From NCBI GenBank assembly GCA_041645165.1, contig JBAZQN010000006.1, positions 4,933 to 68,932 on the forward strand: DNA of 64,000 nt. The letters are read 5' to 3'. Positions 5,296-61,329 of the stretch are shown here, in pieces (the stretch's first letter is position 1; each line of letters opens with the position of its first letter). The notes under the pieces were generated by a model. That model had not been told where the DNA came from, did no database searches, and saw nothing but the letters and a program-made list of their open reading frames with translations. Position numbers and translations under genes: made by a program. The DNA comes from Patescibacteria group bacterium (GTDB lineage Bacteria > Patescibacteriota > Patescibacteriia > 2-02-FULL-49-11).

Positions 5296-5402
5296 TATAT
5301 AACCAGACGCGAGTTGCCGCGTTTCGCCGCGAGGACTGTTTGAGTCCCGCGAAGCGGGACGAGTTCCGCAGCAAGAAAGGCGGCAACCGCGGCGGAATAG
5401 AA
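5296..5402. repeat. GC-rich leader element family F copy 1 (GCGAGGACTGT...GAGTCCCGCGAAGCGGGAC...GAGTTCCGCAGCAAGAAA)
   Basis: Shares GCGAGGACTGT, GTCCCG/CGGGAC hairpin and GAGTTCCGCAG(C)AAGAAA with 7076-7215. Partial similarity to 17030-17110. Confidence 0.5.
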
Positions 5403-9660: not shown

Positions 9661-10581
9661 GGTAAGCTCCCGAAATACCTCCTCAAGGCTTTTTTCTTCT
9701 TCGTATAATTCCGCAATGACCCAGCGGTGTTCAACCGCACATTGAAATACCGCTGTCCGTATATCAACGTCACGCGGGGTGAGGAGCTCAAAACGCTTAA
9801 ATTTATTTTTTTGATTCCCCTCGAACGCTTCCACGCGCGCGACGCCTCCGAGTTTCTCTAATGTTTCCCGAATCCCGCTCCCCTGTGCTTCCACGACCGT
9901 CCGCTTTTCACCGCTTGCGCGGTGTTCTAGTTCATCCACGGTGCCGTCAGCGACAATGCGGCCTTCCCGAATCACTATCACCCGTGAACAGGTCATCGCA
10001 ACTTCAGTAAGGACATGCGTGGAAAGAAGCACTGTTTTTTCCCGTCCCAAGCGTTTTATCAATTCCCTTATTTCATGCCGCTGATTCGGGTCCAACCCTT
10101 CGGTGGGTTCGTCAAAAATAAGGATATCCGGATCTCCCACGATCGCCTGCGCCAAGCCCACCCGCTGGCGAAAACCTTTTGAGAGCTCGGCAATGGGGCG
10201 GCGCCATACCTTTTCAAGGCCGGCAAGCCCAATCGCGCGTTCAACTGCACTCTTTTTGTCCGCTCCCCACATCCCATGGAGCGCTGCGGTATAGTTAAGC
10301 GCCTGCGTCACGAGCAAGTCTTCATGCAAAGGATTATTTTCAGGCAGATATCCTAAACGTTTCTTCAAAGAAAGAGGATCCTCCAATGCATTTTGGCCGT
10401 CAAAATTTATTTCACCCTTATCAGGCTCCAAGACCCCCGCGATTATCCTCATCGTGGTCGTCTTGCCGGCGCCGTTGGGACCCAAAAATCCTATCACTTC
10501 GCCCTTTGAAATGGAAAAAGTGAGCTCATCAACCGCTTTCACCTTGCCAAATGATTTGGATATTTTATCTAACGTGAGCAT
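9649..10581 (-). CDS. ABC transporter ATP-binding protein
   Basis: Walker A GPNGAGKTTTMR, signature LSKGFRQRVGLA, Walker B ILIFDEPTEGLD. Annotated start is the ATG at 10579-10581 (MLTLDKISKSF). The 9 upstream codons of the tracked ORF translate the element TIR. Confidence 0.9.
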   Translation of the reverse strand: MLTLDKISKSFGKVKAVDELTFSISKGEVIGFLGPNGAGKTTTMRIIAGVLEPDKGEINFDGQNALEDPLSLKKRLGYLPENNPLHEDLLVTQALNYTAALHGMWGADKKSAVERAIGLAGLEKVWRRPIAELSKGFRQRVGLAQAIVGDPDILIFDEPTEGLDPNQRHEIRELIKRLGREKTVLLSTHVLTEVAMTCSRVIVIREGRIVADGTVDELEHRASGEKRTVVEAQGSGIRETLEKLGGVARVEAFEGNQKNKFKRFELLTPRDVDIRTAVFQCAVEHRWVIAELYEEEKSLEEVFRELTIES

Positions 10582-10815
10582 ACCCCGTATATCAACATCC
10601 AACGCCAAACGCGGCTGGCATTGGAGAAAACCATAATATGAATGCGATCTTAGAGTATTGTATCATAACAAGATTGGAAGATAACGTTTGGCGATCGGTG
10701 AGGGAGGCTATGTAAAAATCTACCATACGTTCAATCCGCATCCAGTCGTACCTCATCTATTATTTTCTGCACAAAGGTTCCCGCCTCCCTCTTGGATGTT
10801 GTATTGCGGGGCATA
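10579..10815 (-). repeat. family A TIR element copy A1 (MITE-like, ~237 bp), abutting the start codon of the ABC ATPase gene
   Basis: TIRs are cataccccgtatatcaacatccaa ... ttggatgttgtattgcggggcata. Internal nested inverted repeats cgccaaacg/cgtttggcg and gagggagg/cctccctc. The terminal CAT (=ATG) is the gene start. Confidence 0.75.
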
Positions 10816-10875
10816 ACGCCTTATCATAGAAAACACAGCGCGGCTTTCGGCTGTGTTTCCCATCGTATTAATCTT

Positions 10876-11814: not shown

Positions 11815-12123
11815 CTATTTCCTAAAACTAGGATAGCTCCGCATTAATTTTTGCAAACGCTTTTTATAATCACGAAATTTGTTATCAAGTTCAATTTCAT
11901 CCTCCCCGCTCAACCCTACCTCCCGATATGTCCTGTAATCTTCTTCTATCTTTAAAAACAAATCAACAGTCTCTTTCAAATATTTCTCTATTTCTATAAG
12001 CTCAATCAGCTTTCCCTCCATCAGATTAATACGCAGAATCAGATCCTGCATCATAGTCCTCAAATGGCCCTCTAACTCTTTTCGAGAGCAATCACCTCCT
12101 TCAGGCCTCTTTTCTCCATTCAT
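11815..12123 (-). CDS. hypothetical small coiled-coil protein
   Basis: 102-aa ORF immediately 3' of tkt, charged/helical. No recognisable motif. Confidence 0.3.
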   Translation of the reverse strand: MNGEKRPEGGDCSRKELEGHLRTMMQDLILRINLMEGKLIELIEIEKYLKETVDLFLKIEEDYRTYREVGLSGEDEIELDNKFRDYKKRLQKLMRSYPSFRK

Positions 12124-12126
12124 AAA

Positions 12127-14091
12127 TTATTGCCCTAAAGACCGCACCGCCTGTAGTATAGCACCTCTGTCAATTTCCTCAAAACCCAATAATTCCGCGG
12201 GCGTGCCGCTCTTCGGAGTTTTGCGCACTGCGAGTGATTTAAACGCGGCGCCAGTGCCCGCGATTGCTTCTGCCACCGCCTCTCCCAATCCCCCTTCCGG
12301 CACATGGTCTTCCACGGTAATAATCTTGCCTGTCTCTTGAGCCGCCCTTACGAGCGCCGCGCGATCGATGGGTTTTAGAGAATAACAATCTATGATTCTC
12401 AATTCAATTCCTTCTTGCGCCAAAGTATCTGCCGCGGCAAGCGCTTCAAAAAGGGTAATGCCGGCGGCAACGATAGTGCAGACGTCTCGCGCGCTTGACC
12501 TTAACGTCTTACTGCCGCCGATCGGAAACTGTTCCTCCGGACCATAAATGACAGGCGTTGCTCCGCGTGTCGTGCGGAGGTAAACAATGCCATTATAACG
12601 CACAGCTTCATGAACTAGTCTTTCCGTAGCAGGGGCATCTGACGGATAAAGCACCACTGCATCCTGCACCGCCCTAAACATGGCAATGTCCTCGAGCCCC
12701 ATCTGGCTGGGGCCGTCTTCGCCGATAGACACGCCTGCATGCGAACCCACAAACTTCACATTCGCTTTGCTGTACGATGCCATCCTGATCTGGTCAAAGG
12801 CGCGGGTAAAGAACGCCGCAAAAGTGCTGCAAAACGGGATCATACCTCGCTTCGCAAGCCCTACGGCGACACCCACCATATTCTGCTCCGCGATAAACAT
12901 TTCCACAAACTGCTGGGGGGTGCCCTTCTTCACCAATTCTGCAAAGGTGGAATTTTTCACTTCAGCGTCCACCGCCACCACCCGCGGATCCTCACGCGCC
13001 AGTTTCTCCAACGCTTCCCCATACGCTTTCCGCGTCGCGATCAAGTCTCCCTTCTTGTACTCGGTATTAGGTATTACGTATTTCGTATTATGCACTTGAT
13101 CGCTCGCCCCCTGATACCTACTACCTGATACCTGATACGAAACGTCTGGCATTGCAACTGTCCCTCTTAATCGAGTATCAATTTCTCTCAACTCCCCTAA
13201 TGCTTTTTCATATTCTTCAACAGAGAGCGCTTTGCCATGCCACCCTTCCTTATTCTCCATGCACGACACACCCTTCCCCTTTAGGGTCTTTGCGATAATC
13301 ATGGTTGGTTTATCTTGTGTACCCTTAGCCTTGCGATAGGCAGAGAGTATCTCATCAGTATTATGGCCATCCACTATAATCGTTTCCCAGCCAAATGCGG
13401 CGACCCTTCGGGCATACGCGTCCACATCGTGGCCCGCCATAGTCTCTCCGCTCTGCCCCAAACGGTTCACGTCTATAATACCGACTAAATTATCCAGTTT
13501 TTCATGCCCCGCCCACATGATTGCCTCCCACACCGAACCTTCTGCCATTTCGCTGTCTCCGAGAAGCACATACACGCGTGAAACACACCCCTCCTCACTC
13601 CGTTCGGTACCCCTCTCAAGAGGGGAATTACCCGAAGTCCCCTCCTGCGGAGGGGTGTCCCGCCATTGAGGGACGGGGTGGGTAAACCGCTTCAATGCGA
13701 GCGCCATGCCTGCACCTACTGACAGCCCCTGTCCGAGCGAACCAGTCGCCACTTCCGTATAGCGAAACGTCGGCATAGGATGCCCTTCCAGGGGTGAATT
13801 AAATTTTCGCAATGATAAAAGCTCATCTTCGTTTACCGCTCCCGCAGCCGCATAGAGCGCATACAACAAGGGAGCAGCATGCCCTTTAGAAAAAATCACT
13901 CGGTCATTCAAAGGATATTCCGGATGGTCAAGGTCAAAACGCAAAATGCCGCCAAAGAAAAGTACTGTCATGAGATCGGTCGCGGAGAGCGAAGAGCTCG
14001 GATGACCAGACCCTGCCGCGGTCGTCGCGCGAAGGATAAAATAGCGCACCAGCTGCGCGAGATTTTCAAGAGTTTCTTTCGTGGTTTGCAT
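12127..14091 (-). CDS. tkt: transketolase (single-chain short form)
   Basis: GHPSSSLSATDLM...SKGHAAPLLYA (TPP-binding N-domain), plus pyrimidine-binding and C-terminal domains. Contains an extra ~30-aa loop (HPVPQWRDTPPQEGTSGNSPLERGTERSEEGCVS) encoded by a palindromic insert. Confidence 0.9.
   Translation of the reverse strand: MQTTKETLENLAQLVRYFILRATTAAGSGHPSSSLSATDLMTVLFFGGILRFDLDHPEYPLNDRVIFSKGHAAPLLYALYAAAGAVNEDELLSLRKFNSPLEGHPMPTFRYTEVATGSLGQGLSVGAGMALALKRFTHPVPQWRDTPPQEGTSGNSPLERGTERSEEGCVSRVYVLLGDSEMAEGSVWEAIMWAGHEKLDNLVGIIDVNRLGQSGETMAGHDVDAYARRVAAFGWETIIVDGHNTDEILSAYRKAKGTQDKPTMIIAKTLKGKGVSCMENKEGWHGKALSVEEYEKALGELREIDTRLRGTVAMPDVSYQVSGSRYQGASDQVHNTKYVIPNTEYKKGDLIATRKAYGEALEKLAREDPRVVAVDAEVKNSTFAELVKKGTPQQFVEMFIAEQNMVGVAVGLAKRGMIPFCSTFAAFFTRAFDQIRMASYSKANVKFVGSHAGVSIGEDGPSQMGLEDIAMFRAVQDAVVLYPSDAPATERLVHEAVRYNGIVYLRTTRGATPVIYGPEEQFPIGGSKTLRSSARDVCTIVAAGITLFEALAAADTLAQEGIELRIIDCYSLKPIDRAALVRAAQETGKIITVEDHVPEGGLGEAVAEAIAGTGAAFKSLAVRKTPKSGTPAELLGFEEIDRGAILQAVRSLGQ
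13575..13680. repeat. in-frame GC-rich triple-hairpin insertion inside tkt
   Basis: Three hairpins: cccctctcaagagggg, cccctcctgcggagggg, gtcccgccattgagggac. Lies between the conserved GQGLSVGAGMALA and RVYVLLGD motifs. Confidence 0.6.
14041..14091. repeat. direct repeat: tkt 5' end (copy 1, functional start)
   Basis: tagcgcaccagctgcgcgagattttcaagagtttctttcgtggtttgcat, ~90% identical to 16950-17000. Confidence 0.75.
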
Positions 14092-18059: not shown

Positions 18060-18302
18060 GAAGTATATCCAAACTATACGAGATTATTGCATAATAATCA
18101 ACTGCAACGGCATTAAAAGGTGGACTCCCTGTGGAAAGAAGGTTAATAGAAGAGCCTTGGGCGCCTTGCAAAAATAACTTCCCACTTAGGGTACAGAATC
18201 GTGCCTTGCTGGTAACCATACATTATGGACATTCATATAAGTTATTTTTTCAGGCGCCCTTGTAATCCTGCCGCATGGCAAGGTACAATACCATAGCAGT
18301 AA

Positions 18303-18405
18303 TGAAATTCGAAATACTAAATCCGAAATCCTAAACCGTTTTGGATTTTGGTAATTGGAATTTTGGGTTTGTTTAGGATTTAGAGTTTAGGATTTAGGAT
18401 TTTCA
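18303..18405. repeat. low-complexity palindromic spacer (family E; AAATCCTAAA.../...TTTAGGATTT arms)
   Basis: gaaatactaaatccgaaatcctaaaccgttttggattttgg...gtttaggatttagagtttaggatttagg. Confidence 0.6.
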
Positions 18406-18411
18406 TTAAGG

Positions 18412-20477: not shown

Positions 20478-20504
20478 GGACAAGGGAAGGTTACTTTCAA
20501 TATA

Positions 20505-20615
20505 ACAAATCCCAAACCCCAATTTCCAATGACCAAGTAAATCCCAATGCATCAATGACCAAATTTGGACATTTGGATTTTGAGCTTTATTGGGAATTGG
20601 TCATTGGGATTTCTC
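20505..20615. repeat. family E low-complexity palindromic spacer
   Basis: aaatcccaaaccccaatttccaatgaccaa...ttggtcattgggatttc. Confidence 0.55.
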
Positions 20616-21640: not shown

Positions 21641-22822
21641 TACAATCCCATACTTCTTCCCCAATTTCACAAATGCAGACACAAGGGTATCGATTTGCGT
21701 GGTGGTGTGCGCGGCTGAAATTTGCACGCGAATGCGCGCGCGCCCCATAGGCACCACCGGATAACTGAATCCAATCACATAAATCCCTTCCGAGAGCATG
21801 TCTTCTGCTACCCCTAACGCCACTTTCCCCTCGCCGACAATCACGGGCACGATGGGATGGACCGATGCGGGGAGCGTGAAACCTGCCTCAGCCATCTTCG
21901 CACGGAAATGCTTCGTATTATCCCACAAGCGTTCTCGCAACTCCGGATGACCCTTAAGGTGCTGCAATACCGCAATCGTCGTGCCTGCCACGACAGGGGG
22001 CAATGCATTGGTAAACAAACTGGTGCGCACGCGCTGTTCAAGCAGCTCAATTAATGCCGAGGGTCCTGCGATACAGCCGCCGGTTGCGCCGCCCAAAGCT
22101 TTGCCAAACGTGGTAGTGATCACGTCCACCCGATCCTCCACGCGGTGGTATTCATGCGTGCCGCGCCCCGTATCTCCCATGAAACCCGTGGCATGCGAAT
22201 CATCCACAACCACCACGGCATTATATTTCTCCGCCAAATCGCATATCTGCGGCAAGGGCGCGATCTCCCCTTCCATGCTGAATACTCCGTCCGTCACGAT
22301 ACACCGCACGCGTTTGCCTTGGGTCGCTTTCAGTTTCTCCTCAAGACCATGTAAATCCAAATGCGCGTATACGTGCCGTTCTGCTTTGCACAGCCTTAAC
22401 CCGTCAATAATGCTCGCATGATTCAGGGCATCGCTTATCACTGCGTCTTCTTCATTCAGCATCGCGGCAAAAAGGCCTTCATTGGCATCCCAGCAAGAGC
22501 CGAACGCCAATGCAGATTCTTTCTTCAAAAACGCGGCCGTCTCGCGCTCAAGGTCCTTGTGCACTGTCTGCGTGCCGCAAATGAACCGCACCGATGACAA
22601 ACCATACCCATACCGGTCAAGCGCCTTTTTTGCCTCATCAACCAAAATATCGCTGCCTGCAAGCCCTAGATAATTATTCGCGCAAAAATTAATCACCTCT
22701 TTCCCCTGCGTCCTCACCACCGCGCCTTGTCTGCTCTCAAGCACGCGCTGGGATTTATAGAGACCTGAACTCCTTATTTCTTCAAGGACTTTCGTAATAA
22801 TTGGCTGTAGCGAAGAGAACAT
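21635..22822 (-). CDS. kbl: 2-amino-3-ketobutyrate CoA ligase (glycine C-acetyltransferase)
   Basis: 395 aa alpha-oxoamine synthase family: …VINFCANNYLGLAG…, PLP Lys in …TFGKALGG…. Confidence 0.85.
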   Translation of the reverse strand: MFSSLQPIITKVLEEIRSSGLYKSQRVLESRQGAVVRTQGKEVINFCANNYLGLAGSDILVDEAKKALDRYGYGLSSVRFICGTQTVHKDLERETAAFLKKESALAFGSCWDANEGLFAAMLNEEDAVISDALNHASIIDGLRLCKAERHVYAHLDLHGLEEKLKATQGKRVRCIVTDGVFSMEGEIAPLPQICDLAEKYNAVVVVDDSHATGFMGDTGRGTHEYHRVEDRVDVITTTFGKALGGATGGCIAGPSALIELLEQRVRTSLFTNALPPVVAGTTIAVLQHLKGHPELRERLWDNTKHFRAKMAEAGFTLPASVHPIVPVIVGEGKVALGVAEDMLSEGIYVIGFSYPVVPMGRARIRVQISAAHTTTQIDTLVSAFVKLGKKYGIVK

Positions 22823-22832
22823 ATCTCATGAA

Positions 22833-22950
22833 TTAATTCCCAAATCCCAATGCCCAATTCCCAATAAAATCCCAAACCTAAAAATCCAAACATTGAAGCA
22901 TTGGGGTTTAAAGTATTGATTGGTCATTGATCATTGATCATTTATCAATG
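22833..22950. repeat. family E low-complexity palindromic spacer
   Basis: aattcccaaatcccaatgcccaattcccaataaaatcccaaacc...ttggggtttaaag...tggtcattgatcattgatcat. Confidence 0.55.
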
Positions 22951-25291: not shown

Positions 25292-25409
25292 ACCTTAGTG
25301 AAAATGACCAATTAGTACAAAAACACCTTACACGATAAAGTTCAAAATCTCACCGCTTCAGCGGGACCCGCATACCTTAGATAAATTAGTTCAATGTGCG
25401 GGACAAAGC

Positions 25410-25505
25410 TCAAATGCCAAATGAAATCCAAAATTCCAATGCCAAAACTTTAACATTGAGGTTTTGACATTCCTTTGAACTTTGAAATTTGTCATTTGAA
25501 CTTAT
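25410..25505. repeat. family E low-complexity palindromic spacer
   Basis: caaatgccaaatgaaatccaaaattccaatgccaaaac...gttttgacattcctttgaactttgaaatttg. Confidence 0.5.
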
Positions 25506-25533
25506 CAATGGCGGGGTTTGGAATTTCTTTCAA

Positions 25534-37660: not shown

Positions 37661-37667
37661 CCTTGCA

Positions 37668-38066
37668 TTACTTAATCCTCTCTTTAACCTTTTCTTTCCC
37701 TATTGCCTCATGCTCTCCTTTACCGAGTCGTGCCACTCTCTCTCCCAACACCAAAATGACATGGCTGGTCCTGCGGAGGATGGGATTTGCGCGGCCCATC
37801 GCCCGCGGAAAAGTCCTTTTCAGTGAAGGCCCCCCGTCAACGCGTATCTCCTTCACGTAAAGATTGATAGACTCAAGGTGAAAATTATGTTTCGCGTTCG
37901 CTACACCTGATTCCACAAGCTTTTTCAAAGGCTTTGCGCTATGATGCGCATCAAACGAAAGGAGCGCAATTGCTTTAGTGGCATCGATCCCTTTTATGGT
38001 CTCAGCCACCAGCCGCACCTTCCTTGGCGCCATCCGGAGATACCTTAATTTTGCAGTGATGTCCAT
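37668..38066 (-). CDS. rplV: 50S ribosomal protein L22
   Basis: MDITAKLRYLRMAPRKVRLVAETIKG…. Confidence 0.9.
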   Translation of the reverse strand: MDITAKLRYLRMAPRKVRLVAETIKGIDATKAIALLSFDAHHSAKPLKKLVESGVANAKHNFHLESINLYVKEIRVDGGPSLKRTFPRAMGRANPILRRTSHVILVLGERVARLGKGEHEAIGKEKVKERIK

Positions 38067-38170
38067 ACCCGCCTAAATTTTGCACCAGTCTGGTGCACTT
38101 AATTTCTTAATAACGATTACTCGACCTATTGTATCTCACTATTGTTCCTGCCCGCAAAACTTAGGCGGGC
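38064..38170 (-). repeat. family B TIR element copy B3. Left TIR supplies the rplV ATG; right TIR overlaps the rpsS stop codon.
   Basis: CATacccgcctaaattttgcaccagtctggtgcacttaatttc…cccgcaaaacTTAggcgggc. TTA at 38161-38163 is the rpsS TAA. Confidence 0.75.
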
Positions 38171-38496
38171 TTTTCTTTCTCGTCAGGTTTCGTTTGTGCG
38201 ACTTCTGTCTCCGCCTGTTTCGCTTCGATCTCTCTCTGCATGCGGCCGCCATGTCGCACAAATTTGCGGGTTAGGGAAAATTCCCCCAACCGATGCCCTA
38301 CCATATTCTCCACCACGAGGACTGGCACATGGATTTTGCCGTTATGCACGCCAAACACAAAGCCAACCATTTCCGGGGTAATGACGCTCGCGCGCGCCCA
38401 TGTTTTAATAACCGTTTTATCTCCGGATTTTAATGACTTCACGCGCTGCAAGAGTTTTTGATCTATGTAAGGCCCTTTTTTAAGTGAACGTGACAT
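38161..38496 (-). CDS. rpsS: 30S ribosomal protein S19 (with short K/E-rich C-terminal tail)
   Basis: [16 protein letters not shown]…HNGK…. Confidence 0.9.
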
Positions 38497-38602
38497 ACCC
38501 GCCTAAATTTTGCACATTCTTTAAGTGCATTAATTGATTAATAATTCATTACTCGACATAGAGAATTACCATTTTAGCTACCCGCAAAACTTAGGCGGGC
38601 AT
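38494..38602 (-). repeat. family B TIR element copy B4 abutting the rpsS start (divergent interior)
   Basis: catacccgcctaaattttgcacattctttaagtgcattaattg…cccgcaaaacttaggcgggcat. Confidence 0.7.
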
Positions 38603-39481: not shown

Positions 39482-39486
39482 ACCTT

Positions 39487-39610
39487 AATGGAAAATACCA
39501 AACTCTAAATCCTAAATAAATACAAAATTCGAAAATTCAAAAACAAAGTTTCGTCGTTTTTATTTTTTGGATTTGTTTAGAGTTTAGAATTTAGTGCTTA
39601 GGATTTATCA
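39487..39610. repeat. family E low-complexity palindromic spacer
   Basis: aaaataccaaactctaaatcctaaataaatacaaaattcg…ttggatttgtttagagtttagaatttagtgcttaggattt. Confidence 0.6.
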
Positions 39611-39615
39611 CTTTG

Positions 39616-43850: not shown

Positions 43851-45953
43851 CCTCTTCACCCCGCTTCTTGTTTCCTGGATAGCCAGTGCGATCTGCTTGG
43901 GCACTTCTTCATAATGGGAAAATTCCATGGTGTTGGAAGCGCGCCCCTGTGTCATTGAGCGCAGGGTGGTCGCATAGCCGAACATCTCCGCCAGAGGGAC
44001 GAGCGCATCGATAATCTTCACGCCGCTGCGGTCCCGCATCTCTTTGATCTGTCCGCGCTTCGCATTCAAATCTCCTATCACCTCGCCCAGAAATTCTTCC
44101 GGCGTTATTACTTCCACTTTCATGATAGGTTCGAGCAACACGGGCAACGCTCTTTTGCACGCTTCCTGGAACGCGAATGATCCCGCGAGTTTGAATGCCG
44201 CTTCCGATGAATCGACTTCGTGGTACGAACCGTCATACACGGTGACCGTCATGTCAATCACGGGATATCCCGCGACGACGCCGTTCTCAAGCGCTTCTTT
44301 CACGCCCTTCTCAATGGCGGGGATATACTCGCGCGGAATGGACGCTCCTTTTATTTCATCGATGAACTCGTAGCCCTTCCCCCGCTCTTGCGGCGCCACT
44401 CTCAGCCAGCAATGGCCGTATTGCCCGCGCCCGCCTGTCTGCCGGATGTATTTCCCTTCCCCTTCCGCCTCATCTTTGATCGTTTCTTTATATGCCACCT
44501 GCGGCTTGCCCACGGTCGCGCCGACACTGAACTCGCGCTTCATTCTTTCCACAATAATTTCAAGATGCAGCTCACCCATGCCTGAAATAATGGTCTCGAG
44601 CGTTTCCTCGTCTGTCCTGATGCGGAAGGTGGGATCTTCCTCCGCAAGACGCTGGAGCGCGATGCCCATTTTTTCCTGATCCACTTTCGTCTTCGGCTCG
44701 ATCGCGACAGAGATAACCGGCTCGGGAAATACAATGGACTCGAGCAATATAGGATGGTCCGGATCGCACAAGGTATGGCCGGTAGAAGTGCTCTTCAATC
44801 CCACCGCCGCGGCGATCTCTCCTGCAAACACTTCATCCACATCTTCCCGGTGATTCGCATGGAGCCGCACGATCCTGCTGATGCGCTCGCGCTCTCCATT
44901 GCTTACATTGAGGACGTATGATCCTGAGGTCAGGTGCCCGGCATACACGCGGAAAAAAGTGAGTTTTCCCACATAGGGGTCAGCCGCAACCTTAAAGGCA
45001 AGCGCAGTAAACGGCTCATCATCCGATGCCTTGCGTGAAACCGCGGCGCCGGTCTTGGGATCAGATGCCACTAAATCAGGCACATCCAAAGGAGAAGGAA
45101 GATATTCCACGATTGCGTCAAGAAGGAATTGCACTCCTTTATTTTTCAGCGCAGAACCGCAAAGGATGGGGATAATCTTGCACTGGATCACTGCCTTTCT
45201 CAATACTGCTTTTAATTCCCCCAAGGCGGGCTCCTTGCCTTCCAAGTACTGGCGCATGAGGGTATCGTCATTTTCCACTATTGCCTCAATGAGCGCGTGG
45301 CGCGCGGTTTCCGCAACTTTGCTTAATTCAGCGGGGATTTCTTCTTCAGTAATTTCCTTACCCCATTCGTCATGGTACAGGTATGCCTTGCGAGTAAGGA
45401 GATCAATGATGCCTTTGAATTTTTCCTCATCTCCGATGGGGATCTGGAGCGGGTACGCATTCTTGGCGAGCCTTGTGTGTATGCTCTTCACGTCCGCCCA
45501 AAAATCCGCGCCCATCCGGTCGAGCTTATTGATGAAACACATGCGGGGCACATTGTAGCCGTCCGCATAACGCCAGTTCGTCTCGCTTTGCGGTTCCACT
45601 CCTGCCACGCCGTCAAACACCACGACGGCGCCGTCAAGCACCCTCAAACTTCTCTTCACTTCCACGGTAAAGTCAATGTGGCCCGGAGTATCGATGAGGT
45701 TCAGCCGGTGCTTATTGCCAGGATCGGACGTCGGCGCCCAGAAACAAGTCGTCGCGGCAGCGGTAATGGTGATGCCGCGCTCCTTCTCCTGCTCCATCCA
45801 GTCCATTTCAGCCGCGCCTTCATGGACCTCCCCGATCTTATGCTTCTTGCCAGTATAAAACAGCACGCGTTCAGACACGGTGGTTTTTCCCGCGTCAATG
45901 TGGGCGATAATGCCGAAATTTCTCGTTTTCTCTAATGAATATTCCCGTGGCAT
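43842..45953 (-). CDS. fusA: elongation factor G
   Basis: [17 protein letters not shown], domains II–V. Confidence 0.95.
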
Positions 45954-46161
45954 ACCCGCCTAAATTTTGCACTTCATTAAGTGCATAATATGGTAATAAG
46001 GAATGAATCGACCAAATGAATCTATACCTAGTGCCGTTACAATTTAATTCGGCTATAACTGATATGCTTATTTTACCATCTGTATTGAAATACTAATCTC
46101 TTGCGTGTCGCAAAACTTAATTGTAACGGTACTAGTTCATGCCCGCAAAACTTAGGCGGGC
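45951..46161 (-). repeat. family B TIR element copy B5 (long, ~211 bp) abutting the fusA start
   Basis: catacccgcctaaattttgcacttcattaagtgcataat … gttcatgcccgcaaaacttaggcgggc. Confidence 0.7.
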
Positions 46162-46618
46162 GAATATGAAGTTTGATGGTGAAGCTCCACGGCTTTATAG
46201 CCGTGGCATCTTCACGTTCTTCGGCGGAACCCGCCGAAGCGTATCCGCCTTCGCTTGGAGGCTACGGCGGATTACCCGCATCGCATTCATCCACCCCGCC
46301 ATGGCGGGGTGGCTTTCTGCGGAGGCGGGTAAAAAAATAAATCCTCCCCTTCTCTCTCCCTCCTTCTCCTTCCGCAATCGTGCGTGAGCGCATGAACCTT
46401 CACTTGATGATCGGGGTAAACTGATTTTCGCAGCGATTTTTCTTCAGCGAGAGCTGCGCTTGCGAAACCCTCCGCAACCGGCCCCAGCACGGTCTCTGAT
46501 GTCAGTCGGAGTGGGGCTGGTGAGGCGGAGTGCGGTCCCGCGCTGGCGGGACCGACACGTGTTTCGCAATGTGCAACTCGAGCGACTGCGTGAGTCCATC
46601 ATCGGCAATCCCGAGCGT
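46162..46618. other. GC-rich hairpin-dense non-coding region between rpsG and fusA (candidate structured RNA or element remnant)
   Basis: Stems ccacggctttatagccgtgg, cggcggaacccgccgaag, cccgccatggcgggg. No credible ORF. Conventional str operons have a ≤100-bp rpsG–fusA gap. Confidence 0.4.
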
Positions 46619-47089
46619 CTACCCATAGCGGGCGAAATGCGCAAACGCGCGGTTCGCTTCCGCCATTCTCTGCATATCCATTTTCTTTTTCATGGCCGCG
46701 CCCTCACCCTTCGCCGCCTCCTGCAGCTCTTCCAGAAGTTTCTTGTGCATCGGTTTTCCTTTCCGGGCTCTTGAGGCATCAATAATCCACCGGAACGCGA
46801 GCGTGTTCCTGCGGTCGGGATTTACGGGAAATGGAATTTGATAGTTGGCGCCCCCAATCCTGCGCGGCCGTATTTCCAGCGCCGGCCCTACATTCTTCAT
46901 GGCCATATCAAACACCGTGAGCGGGTCAGCGCCTGCGCTTTTAATGGCATCAAACGTGCGGTAGAGCACATTTTGCGCGGTTGATTTCTTCCCGCGCCGC
47001 ATGAGGTAATTGATGAATTTCGCAATCGTCACCGATCCAAACTTTGGATCCGGCGCAATTTTTCTCTTTGGTGCTTTCTTTCCACGCAT
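46619..47089 (-). CDS. rpsG: 30S ribosomal protein S7
   Basis: MRGKKAPKRKIAPDPKFGS…ANRAFAHF…. Confidence 0.9.
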   Translation of the reverse strand: MRGKKAPKRKIAPDPKFGSVTIAKFINYLMRRGKKSTAQNVLYRTFDAIKSAGADPLTVFDMAMKNVGPALEIRPRRIGGANYQIPFPVNPDRRNTLAFRWIIDASRARKGKPMHKKLLEELQEAAKGEGAAMKKKMDMQRMAEANRAFAHFARYG

Positions 47090-61137: not shown

Positions 61138-61272
61138 GAAATCCTAAACACTAAACTCTAAACCCTAAACAAATCTAAAATCCAAATATCAAAATCCAAA
61201 ATGTAAATGTAAAATCTATAAATTTTAATCTATCATTTTGATTTTTGCATTTTGGATTTTACATTCCTCCCC
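61138..61272. repeat. family E low-complexity palindromic spacer
   Basis: aaatcctaaacactaaactctaaaccctaaacaaatctaaaatccaaatatcaaaatccaaaatg…ttttgatttttgcattttggatttt. Confidence 0.6.
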
Positions 61273-61329
61273 GATAAAACAAAACCTCCCCGTTAAAATC
61301 GAGGAAGTTGCAAACATATTAACTCAGGA

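Follow-up and report, generated by a model that had tools for sequence, protein, structure and literature searches.

How a block of DNA hairpins comes to be translated within an essential enzyme is the question raised by the transketolase gene (tkt) on a 64,000-nt stretch of the Patescibacteria group bacterium contig JBAZQN010000006.1, hereafter the window, whose own numbering is used for it throughout. The original prediction, made from the sequence alone, described an extra Pro/Glu/Gly-rich loop in tkt, encoded by an in-frame palindromic insertion that had been domesticated. Our analysis shows that the insert is a lineage-specific, in-frame and stop-free palindromic repeat element. It is probably a solo, non-autonomous copy of a selfish element that resembles REPINs (doublets of repetitive extragenic palindromic, or REP, sequences), translated as a disordered loop and tolerated by the enzyme.

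The extra segment of tkt

The host gene was identified from the open reading frame (ORF) list, Pfam and PDB matches, and an identical database protein. It is a minus-strand ORF (12127–14091) that encodes a complete, human-type single-chain transketolase of 654 aa. The product matches Transketolase_N (PF00456), Transket_pyr (PF02779) and Transketolase_C (PF02780), and its closest PDB structures are those of human transketolase, 4kxu and 3mos (phmmer, E 1e-182). The phmmer match to human TKT is broken in two, with query residues 137–170 in between standing opposite four human residues. A protein alignment places T137–S171 (35 aa) against 5–7 residues in human TKT and 19 homologues, and all 19 aligned homologues lack the segment. 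The predicted loop is thus real, with 35 residues where relatives have 5, and it is absent from tkt orthologues at 79%, 71%, 67% and lower identity; the absence at 67–79%, in one case from a syntenic locus, bears out its description as an in-frame palindromic insertion. No homologous loop from an unrelated lineage appears among the aligned homologues. The precomputed Pfam list for the tkt protein is without two families that are present on its orthologues; inserts of this kind make proteins longer and may make their domains harder to annotate.

At the DNA level, the extra segment (13579–13683, minus strand), delimited by protein, DNA and codon comparison, comprises 105 nt or 35 codons in place of 15 nt or 5 codons, a net gain of 90 nt and 30 codons. 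Two orthologues (loci L205 and L207) read AAR CGG TTT, then GAC CGG ACT GAC GCG (loop DRTDA), then CGN GTN TAT, and the window gene reads AAG CGG TTT, then the 105 nt, then CGC GTG TAT. In a DNA alignment of the flanks, nucleotide identity to the 79%-identity orthologues exceeds 90% as far as both junctions. Set against the empty sites of L205 and L207, the filled site shows neither a target-site duplication nor a direct repeat where insert and flanks meet. The same 654-aa protein is encoded on a 6.3-kb contig in the Logan assembly of sequencing run SRR8449827, and a database entry labelled 'MAG: transketolase [Patescibacteria group bacterium]', MAG being a metagenome-assembled genome, has the identical protein sequence.

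Within the protein, the insert lies between a helix ending at F136 and the strand leading to the GDG/thiamine diphosphate (ThDP) motif. An AlphaFold2 (AF2) model built from a 20-sequence alignment renders residues 138–169 as coil, with a predicted local distance difference test score (pLDDT) below 50, between a confident helix (122–137) and strand (173–178). The model suggests that, at the strand end far from the GDG/ThDP site, the loop with its insert forms a disordered excursion, and we infer that the loop would be exposed and functionally neutral.

The element itself occupies 101 nt (13583–13683), as delimited by a covariance model described below, and has a terminal inverted repeat enclosing four hairpin slots. 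The left terminal repeat, ACACACCCC (13583–13591), and the right one, GGGGTGGGT (13675–13683), were located by an inverted-repeat search together with the family alignment for the former and the covariance model alignment for the latter; they are complementary at 8 of 9 positions, with one mismatch. Slot 1 holds a decayed outer hairpin, TCCTCACTCCGTTCGGTA (13592–13609; model and family alignments), where canonical copies have a variable GC hairpin. The two central hairpins were found by pattern search: hairpin 2, CCCCTCTCAAGAGGGG (13610–13625), reads CCCCTC-TCAA-GAGGGG with an exact 6-bp stem, and hairpin 3, CCCCTCCTGCGGAGGGG (13639–13655), reads CCCCTCC-TGC-GGAGGGG with a 7-bp stem. Between them is a 13-nt spacer of the A/T-started type, AATTACCCGAAGT. 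Outer hairpin 4, GTCCCGCCATTGAGGGAC (13658–13675; direct reading and model alignment), reads GTCCC-GCCATTGA-GGGAC, pairing over 5 bp before a G/A mismatch. Of three hairpins that had been called perfect, two are so and the third is imperfect, breaking off at that mismatch; the triplet gives way to a terminal inverted repeat with four slots, two perfect, one imperfect and one decayed. The predicted position of the hairpin at 13610–13625 was exact, that of the one at 13639–13655 one base off. Some family members are without outer hairpins altogether.

Neither central hairpin pattern was found in 100 dinucleotide-preserving shuffles of the window. A 116-nt RNA containing the insert folds with −59.5 kcal/mol, compared with −45.5 ± 3.8 kcal/mol in shuffles (z = −3.7), and the element has 64% GC against about 48% for the genome. 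ARAGORN reported no tRNA-like gene at the insert site.

The transketolases examined here contain other repeat-like sequence. At the same loop, the orthologue P0040 has a different 10-aa insert. It also has 'ARLPSPSAQADGGQ' in its Pyr domain, and the tkt of P0033 has 'EKPFDSLALAQG'; both are Patescibacteria-type transketolases with small GC-rich inserts of their own, and small in-frame inserts occur sporadically among the tkt homologues aligned here. The interdomain linker of the window tkt (13059–13140, minus strand; residues ~318–345) is an inverted 7-nt array, GGTATCA four times followed by AATACNN four times, built like the AT-rich heptamer-array palindromes that lie between the window's genes. 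Orthologues have different repeat-like sequence at this linker, for example 'FPISNFQFQNKSQI' and 'FQIPNSKFQIPNKSQIQNSKFQ', and the AF2 pLDDT there is below 50. The linker has the look of another in-frame segment derived from a repeat, and an older one. Directly downstream of tkt is a 102-aa ORF (11815–12123, minus strand) with no Pfam match; it is called in the Logan contig, but locus L002 of the 79%-identity relative, otherwise syntenic, lacks it.

A repeat family in many phyla, linked to DUF559 genes

The two central hairpins define a pattern, CCCCTC-N4-GAGGGG followed after a 5–25-nt gap by CCCCTCC-N3-GGAGGGG, and a scan for it in one genome per species returned more than 120 stretches among the matches listed, from at least ten phyla. 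A rough uniform-base estimate puts the chance expectation for the collection at well under one. The hosts include Verrucomicrobiota, Kiritimatiellae, Binatia, Calditrichota, Ignavibacteriota, Acidobacteriota and Clostridia; Bacteroidota, among them Flavobacterium flevense and Tannerella forsythia; Cyanobacteria, among them Nodosilinea PCC 7104 and Phormidium; termite-gut Actinobacteria and Betaproteobacteria; Gammaproteobacteria; a spirochaete; and Patescibacteria. At 81 of 127 sites among the matches listed, ACCCACCCC lies upstream and GGGGTGGGT lies downstream, although neither terminal arm is imposed by the pattern.

The family layout is a 9-bp terminal inverted repeat (ACCCACCCC/GGGGTGGGT, extending to 9–11 bp across copies), two central CCCCTCC-loop-GGAGGGG hairpins and two variable outer hairpins, within roughly 90–120 nt. 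The interior is itself palindromic, an additional GC hairpin of variable sequence often standing between terminal arm and central hairpins, and the left half is the reverse complement of the right, making a near-perfect inverted doublet. Pairs in the terminal stem and outer hairpins covary (at pair 2–135, 17 sequences have CG and 9 have AU), and the observed covariation score was reached in 0 of 500 shuffles. RNAalifold does not separate local hairpins from long-range pairing, because the central stems are identical, and tends to long-range pairing. Several genomes account for many of the loci and have more than one copy each (for example WRLB01, CAYQYB01, JAIPKD01 and CP123443), and genomes with many copies include Nodosilinea PCC 7104, Flavobacterium flevense, Ca. 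Haliotispira prima and Binatia.

A covariance model, R1, was built over 92 positions from 28 full copies from other phyla, with the window excluded. It matches window positions 13583–13683 over all of its positions (1–92 of 92) with 66.3 bits and an E-value of 1.2e-13, which is rough, like all R1 E-values, owing to a short calibration; the reverse strand scores 49.3 bits. Judged by this match, the tkt insert is a full-length family member. The orthologous tkt loci L002–L004 and L205–L207 (~33 kb, one of them syntenic) gave no R1 match.

Searches for a known identity of the family returned little. Rfam, run on 18 loci with canonical copies, reported only a tRNA, and we found no description of such a palindromic element family in the literature, whether by sequence strings or under the topics of REPINs and REP-associated tyrosine transposases (RAYTs). 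Phage-borne spread was considered and is unsupported, the pattern occurring in 1 of 2.9 million viral contigs.

Copies within genes are not confined to tkt. Among the matches listed, 24 of 126 sites have an open frame of at least 60 codons on both sides, in a screen that covered open frames only. The element is translated as residues 724–762 of a ComEC protein (L036), inside its Lactamase_B match (624–878); as residues 430–457 of a MutS (L086), inside MutS_III; as residues 729–766 of a leucyl-tRNA synthetase (LeuRS) from another Patescibacteria MAG (L111), inside Anticodon_1; between the UvrD_C and PDDEXK_1 matches of an AddB-like nuclease (L061); and after the AlgX domain match of an AlgX-like protein (L113). 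Two Verrucomicrobiota species, both represented by MAGs, have it at a common site in MurC (L065:595–689 and L088:7205–7299). Their MurC proteins are 77% identical and the elements are identical at 85 of 95 nt, and in outer hairpin 1 GGCC/GGCC has become GCCG/CGGC, a set of compensatory swaps within a coding region. This hints that stem complementarity was kept after insertion, by selection or by hairpin-templated repair. The MutS and tkt loops are permissive sites that have been colonised repeatedly. One element of about 100 nt is common to many phyla and stands in frame in tkt, leuS, mutS, murC and comEC, and such elements are natural markers of insertion-tolerant sites in essential enzymes.

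Two side observations concern these loci. The same LeuRS gene (L111:603–3230, Patescibacteria MAG STD1_31) has two more in-frame segments of a 'CHPERS...' type, 'VCHPERSGAEPRDPL' and 'SFCHPERSDSEVKDLKIADPSRGAQDDKGGGD', which look like another GC-rich repeat translated in frame. At the Verrucomicrobiia loci L006, L086 and L101, the element sits within a longer repeat with extra outer inverted arms, ..CCATGAACC.. and ..GGTTCATGG.., and by these sequences the family appears to have lineage-specific composite forms.

The element is tightly linked to one gene family. We clustered all ORFs from 120 element-selected loci, about 800 kb among the matches listed, and the only recurrent neighbour besides common housekeeping families was a 110–160-aa protein found in 7 loci and matching Pfam DUF559 (PF04480) with E-values of 1e-28 to 1e-35. 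All 7 of these ORFs lie within 350 nt of an element, and at L121 (Trichlorobacter) the gene is placed between two nearly identical full copies (534–635 and 1046–1147); the DUF559 gene at L112 (Nodosilinea) is likewise flanked by elements. No RAYT or other transposase family emerged from the ORF clusters of these 120 loci. In a reverse test, 80 metagenome loci were fetched by DUF559 homology alone and then searched with R1 (E ≤ 0.01). Matches occurred in 62 of the 80, and in 33 of 33 of the closest homologues. An R1 match lies within 250 nt of DUF559 on the upstream side in 43 loci, on the downstream side in 50 and on both in 32, and altogether 103 of 113 distinct R1 sites fall no more than 250 nt from the gene, although such positions account for just 32% of the searched sequence. 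The element family is therefore physically linked to DUF559 genes.

The downstream copy often begins at the DUF559 stop codon, and the terminal arm accordingly encodes a C-terminal '...NHP'. The unit at L178 has the ends ACACACC.../...GGGGTGTGT and a CCCCTCTTGAGAGGGG hairpin that resembles the window copy; conversely, the spacer and hairpin 2 of the tkt copy are partly common to DUF559-flanking copies such as those at L178 and L020. The element-flanked DUF559 proteins are single-domain, about 110–130 aa long, and keep acidic and histidine residues of the E...D...H.D type. Their profile matches PDB entries 3hrl (E 1e-28) and 3r3p, the catalytic domain of I-Bth0305I (E 9e-5). I-Bth0305I founded a Vsr-like EDxHD family of homing endonucleases that includes free-standing members (PMC3239194), and VSR, DUF559 and DUF2726 fall into a single clade in a published classification (PMC3424549). 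By these matches DUF559 is a Vsr-like PD-(D/E)XK nuclease. This very large protein family has had no assigned function, and by analogy its nuclease may mobilise or maintain the elements.

The tkt insert was also compared with the window's own repeats, which are AT-rich heptamer arrays and GTCCCGC and GCCCGC hairpins. It had been likened to the GC stems of intergenic families D/F, and a common family with the GC hairpins between the window's genes is rejected: BLAST of the insert against the window gave chance-level matches only, the best pairing it with a GTCCCGC hairpin at 18 of 20 positions (E 0.38), and R1 found no second copy across the 64 kb, apart from one weak 23.8-bit match to a different palindrome at 46274–46330. 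Nor did the window hold further copies of the hairpin triplet. The weak match falls in the rpsG-fusA spacer (46139–46620), which is unusually long for a str operon and packed with GC-rich palindromes, TTACCCGC...CCACCCCGCCATGGCGGGGTGG...GCGGGTAA at 46274–46330 and CGGTCCCGCGCTGGCGGGACCG at 46533–46554; we assign these to a different family because they reach only 23.8 bits.

The window's remaining repeats are of several kinds. Many intergenic elements (families D4 and D6–D15) consist of AAATCC/AAACTC-type heptamer runs followed by complementary GGATTT-type runs and represent a dispersed, genome-specific palindromic repeat (for example 18291–18407, 20502–20612, 22814–22896, 25403–25508, 30441–30534, 31708–31814, 33000–33136, 37532–37674, 39486–39611 and 61139–61278). 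A second family pairs ATACCCGCCTAAATTTTGCAC with GCCCGCAAAACTTAGGCGGGC (families D3, D16 and D17; 33897–34009, 34551–34662, 38059–38170, 38489–38600, 45946–45972 and 46135–46161), and GTCCCGC...GCGGGAC hairpins stand at 5344, 33600, 47139 and 48595. The latter two are probably what had been termed families D/F and bear no relation to the tkt insert. Finally, four copies of a 130–240-nt repeat ending in GCCTCCCTCTTGGATGTTGTATTGCGGGGCATA (10579–10816, 32172–32407, 34977–35215 and 36136–36372; families D1, D2 and D11) may represent upstream regions in common or the beginnings of paralogous genes.

Explanations for the insert

The insert might owe its presence to a function, the loop serving the enzyme in regulation, interaction or oligomerisation, or the mRNA hairpins, with their Shine-Dalgarno-like GGAGGGG tracts, tuning tkt translation or mRNA stability. 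The intact tkt frame, the two stems that are still perfect, the excess of RNA structure over shuffles and the MurC element, which persists at one site in two species with compensatory swaps suggestive of a maintained structure, would fit such a role. A recent insertion or hairpin-templated repair would, however, leave perfect stems just as readily, and in the tkt copy decay has set in at outer hairpin 1 and in the terminal stem. The occurrence of elements in unrelated proteins at unrelated sites, moreover, fits opportunistic insertion into permissive loops. With the segment predicted to be disordered and missing from all relatives, including the 79%-identity ones among the 19 aligned homologues, the label 'domesticated' is unsupported, and we consider a functional insert unlikely; the segment looks like tolerated selfish DNA. 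Formation of the hairpins in place, by replication template-switching or slippage, is far less probable still. Template switching does create perfect short inverted repeats, and a single copy in the window and the lack of a target-site duplication are what it would leave. A model drawn from other phyla nevertheless fits the insert at all 92 positions, terminal repeats, hairpin order and linker bases alike, and parts of its spacer and hairpin 2 recur beside DUF559 genes, so that a de novo origin is effectively refuted by the full-length match.

An assembly or binning artefact, in which a chimeric contig joined two tkt halves through another organism's repeat, has some plausibility in a MAG whose element differs so much in GC content from the genome and belongs to a family common in co-occurring phyla. 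We hold it to be very improbable: both flanks belong to one gene in one frame and stay close to the orthologues up to the junctions, the insert has no stop codon and brings the frame back exactly, and the Logan contig shows that a second assembler arrives at the identical protein. It is similarly hard to credit that the mature protein lacks the segment because it is spliced out like an RNA intron, bypassed in translation or excised like an intein. Pairing of the terminal repeats would draw the RNA ends together; against this, group I and II introns and inteins are all far larger than the segment, no splicing residues are present, and Rfam found no family at its gathering score over the insert region (the best hit was the serC leader, with 19.9 bits against a threshold of 35). 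The intragenic copies in recognised genes, from a screen of open frames, are all in frame and stop-free, which would be unnecessary if they were excised.

These considerations leave a tolerated solo copy of a REPIN-like selfish element as the probable explanation, and several observations count against it or narrow it. The exposure of the tkt loop is read from a disorder prediction and general knowledge of the fold. The 64-kb window has one family copy and no DUF559 gene, and thus lends no support to activity of the family in this genome. At tkt, 15 nt were replaced, with neither a target-site duplication nor a clean footprint. The comparison of filled and empty MutS sites likewise gave no clean insertion footprint, and the MutS loop is hypervariable in close relatives, a 92%-identical orthologue holding unrelated repeat-like sequence. 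In the first locus set, the central hairpins were dictated by the pattern used in the scan. As the 80 DUF559 loci stand closest to the query set, the figure of 62 of 80 describes one DUF559 subfamily. Finally, the linkage might instead reflect DUF559 genes that insert beside the elements or are regulated by them.

For a selfish element of this kind, the following course of events may be proposed. One copy would have entered the tkt loop, between helix 122–137 and strand 173–178, in this Patescibacteria lineage, exchanging 15 nt for 105 nt and leaving no target-site duplication. In tkt only in-frame, stop-free outcomes could survive, and the insert therefore looks 'designed' and is read through as a 35-residue loop. 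A DUF559 nuclease may make breaks or nicks at or near hairpin DNA, the element then being copied during repair; copying during break repair would fit better than cut-and-paste transposition because 15 nt were replaced and no duplication was made. Solo copies could be non-autonomous derivatives, or remnants after recombination between two flanking copies. Spread driven by DUF559 would, by analogy, parallel that of RAYT/REPIN systems or endonuclease-driven homing. The odd Pro/Glu/Gly-rich loop of tkt would then be explained, with no adaptation, as translated selfish DNA in a permissive loop.

It is conceivable, and we put it forward tentatively, that DUF559 genes and four-hairpin repeats together form an undescribed class of bacterial mobile or selfish DNA, in which repeats bracket a Vsr-like PD-(D/E)XK nuclease and solo repeats, spreading in genomes of many phyla, colonise the permissive loops of essential proteins in frame time and again. 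If true, this would give the DUF559 family its first concrete function and provide a second, mechanistically different counterpart to RAYT/REPIN. In-frame palindromic elements are already known from Rickettsia and from REPs, and a literature search of incomplete coverage returned no description of a link between DUF559 and repeats.

Comparison with known systems

In fungal mitochondria, GC clusters or double-hairpin elements are GC-rich hairpins that stand in frame in essential genes of an otherwise lower-GC genome. Unlike the present family they are organellar and unrelated in sequence, and they are not known to have an associated DUF559 gene. Among bacteria, the Rickettsia palindromic elements (RPEs) are palindromes of ~100–150 bp found in frame in unrelated housekeeping genes (Ogata et al. 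2000, via PMC10969869 and PMC3733652). The present element resembles them in lying in frame in functional ORFs (those of tkt, ComEC, MutS, LeuRS, MurC and the AddB-like nuclease), in being translated as an extra peptide in permissive loops, and in having no known encoded transposase; it differs in being GC-rich, spread over many phyla and physically linked to a nuclease gene. RPEs are not known outside Rickettsia and its relatives, nor are their sequences known to be related to this family; homology to the RPE-1 to RPE-10 consensus sequences is unlikely, given the GC-rich composition and host range.

Bacterial MITEs (miniature transposable elements with inverted repeats), such as Correia/NEMIS, ERIC, RUP and Nezha (reviewed in PMC10969869), share with the family their small size, non-coding nature, terminal inverted repeats, stable folds and capacity for in-frame fusions. 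Unlike MITEs, the element made no target-site duplication at tkt, and we found no parent insertion sequence with a DDE transposase. The longer form is instead element-DUF559-element, in which the flanks are complete copies rather than half ends, and DUF559 is no known transposase. The nuclease itself is closer to the EDxHD/Vsr-like homing endonucleases, a selfish family with free-standing members (PMC3239194, PMC2677866), as its match to the catalytic domain of I-Bth0305I (PDB 3r3p) indicates. I-Bth0305I has N-terminal NUMOD/helix-turn-helix DNA-binding domains and resides within group I introns or inteins of phage genes, whereas the DUF559 proteins described here are single-domain, lie outside introns and are bracketed by palindromic repeats.

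REP and REPIN elements with their RAYT transposases form 'REPtrons' (PMC3116915, PMC3337134, PMC3733652). Like REPINs, the present elements are short GC-rich palindromes arranged as inverted doublets, two inverted units forming a larger hairpin; there are many solo copies per genome, and copies stand on either side of one small nuclease-type gene. As with REPs, occasional copies lie within genes, including repair and tRNA synthetase genes. REPs are defined by a GTAG (or CGTC) tag at one end of a 20–40-bp palindrome (PMC3733652), and neither tag is present at the ends of the element unit. The unit is instead a four-hairpin structure of roughly 100 nt, the flanked gene is DUF559, of the Vsr-like PD-(D/E)XK type, and not an HUH/Y1 tyrosine transposase, and one sequence family extends across phyla, where REPINs are lineage-specific and vertically inherited. 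Judged by the features that define them, the family would be neither a REP/RAYT system nor a MITE, and we suggest by analogy that it works like a REPIN system equipped with a PD-(D/E)XK nuclease.

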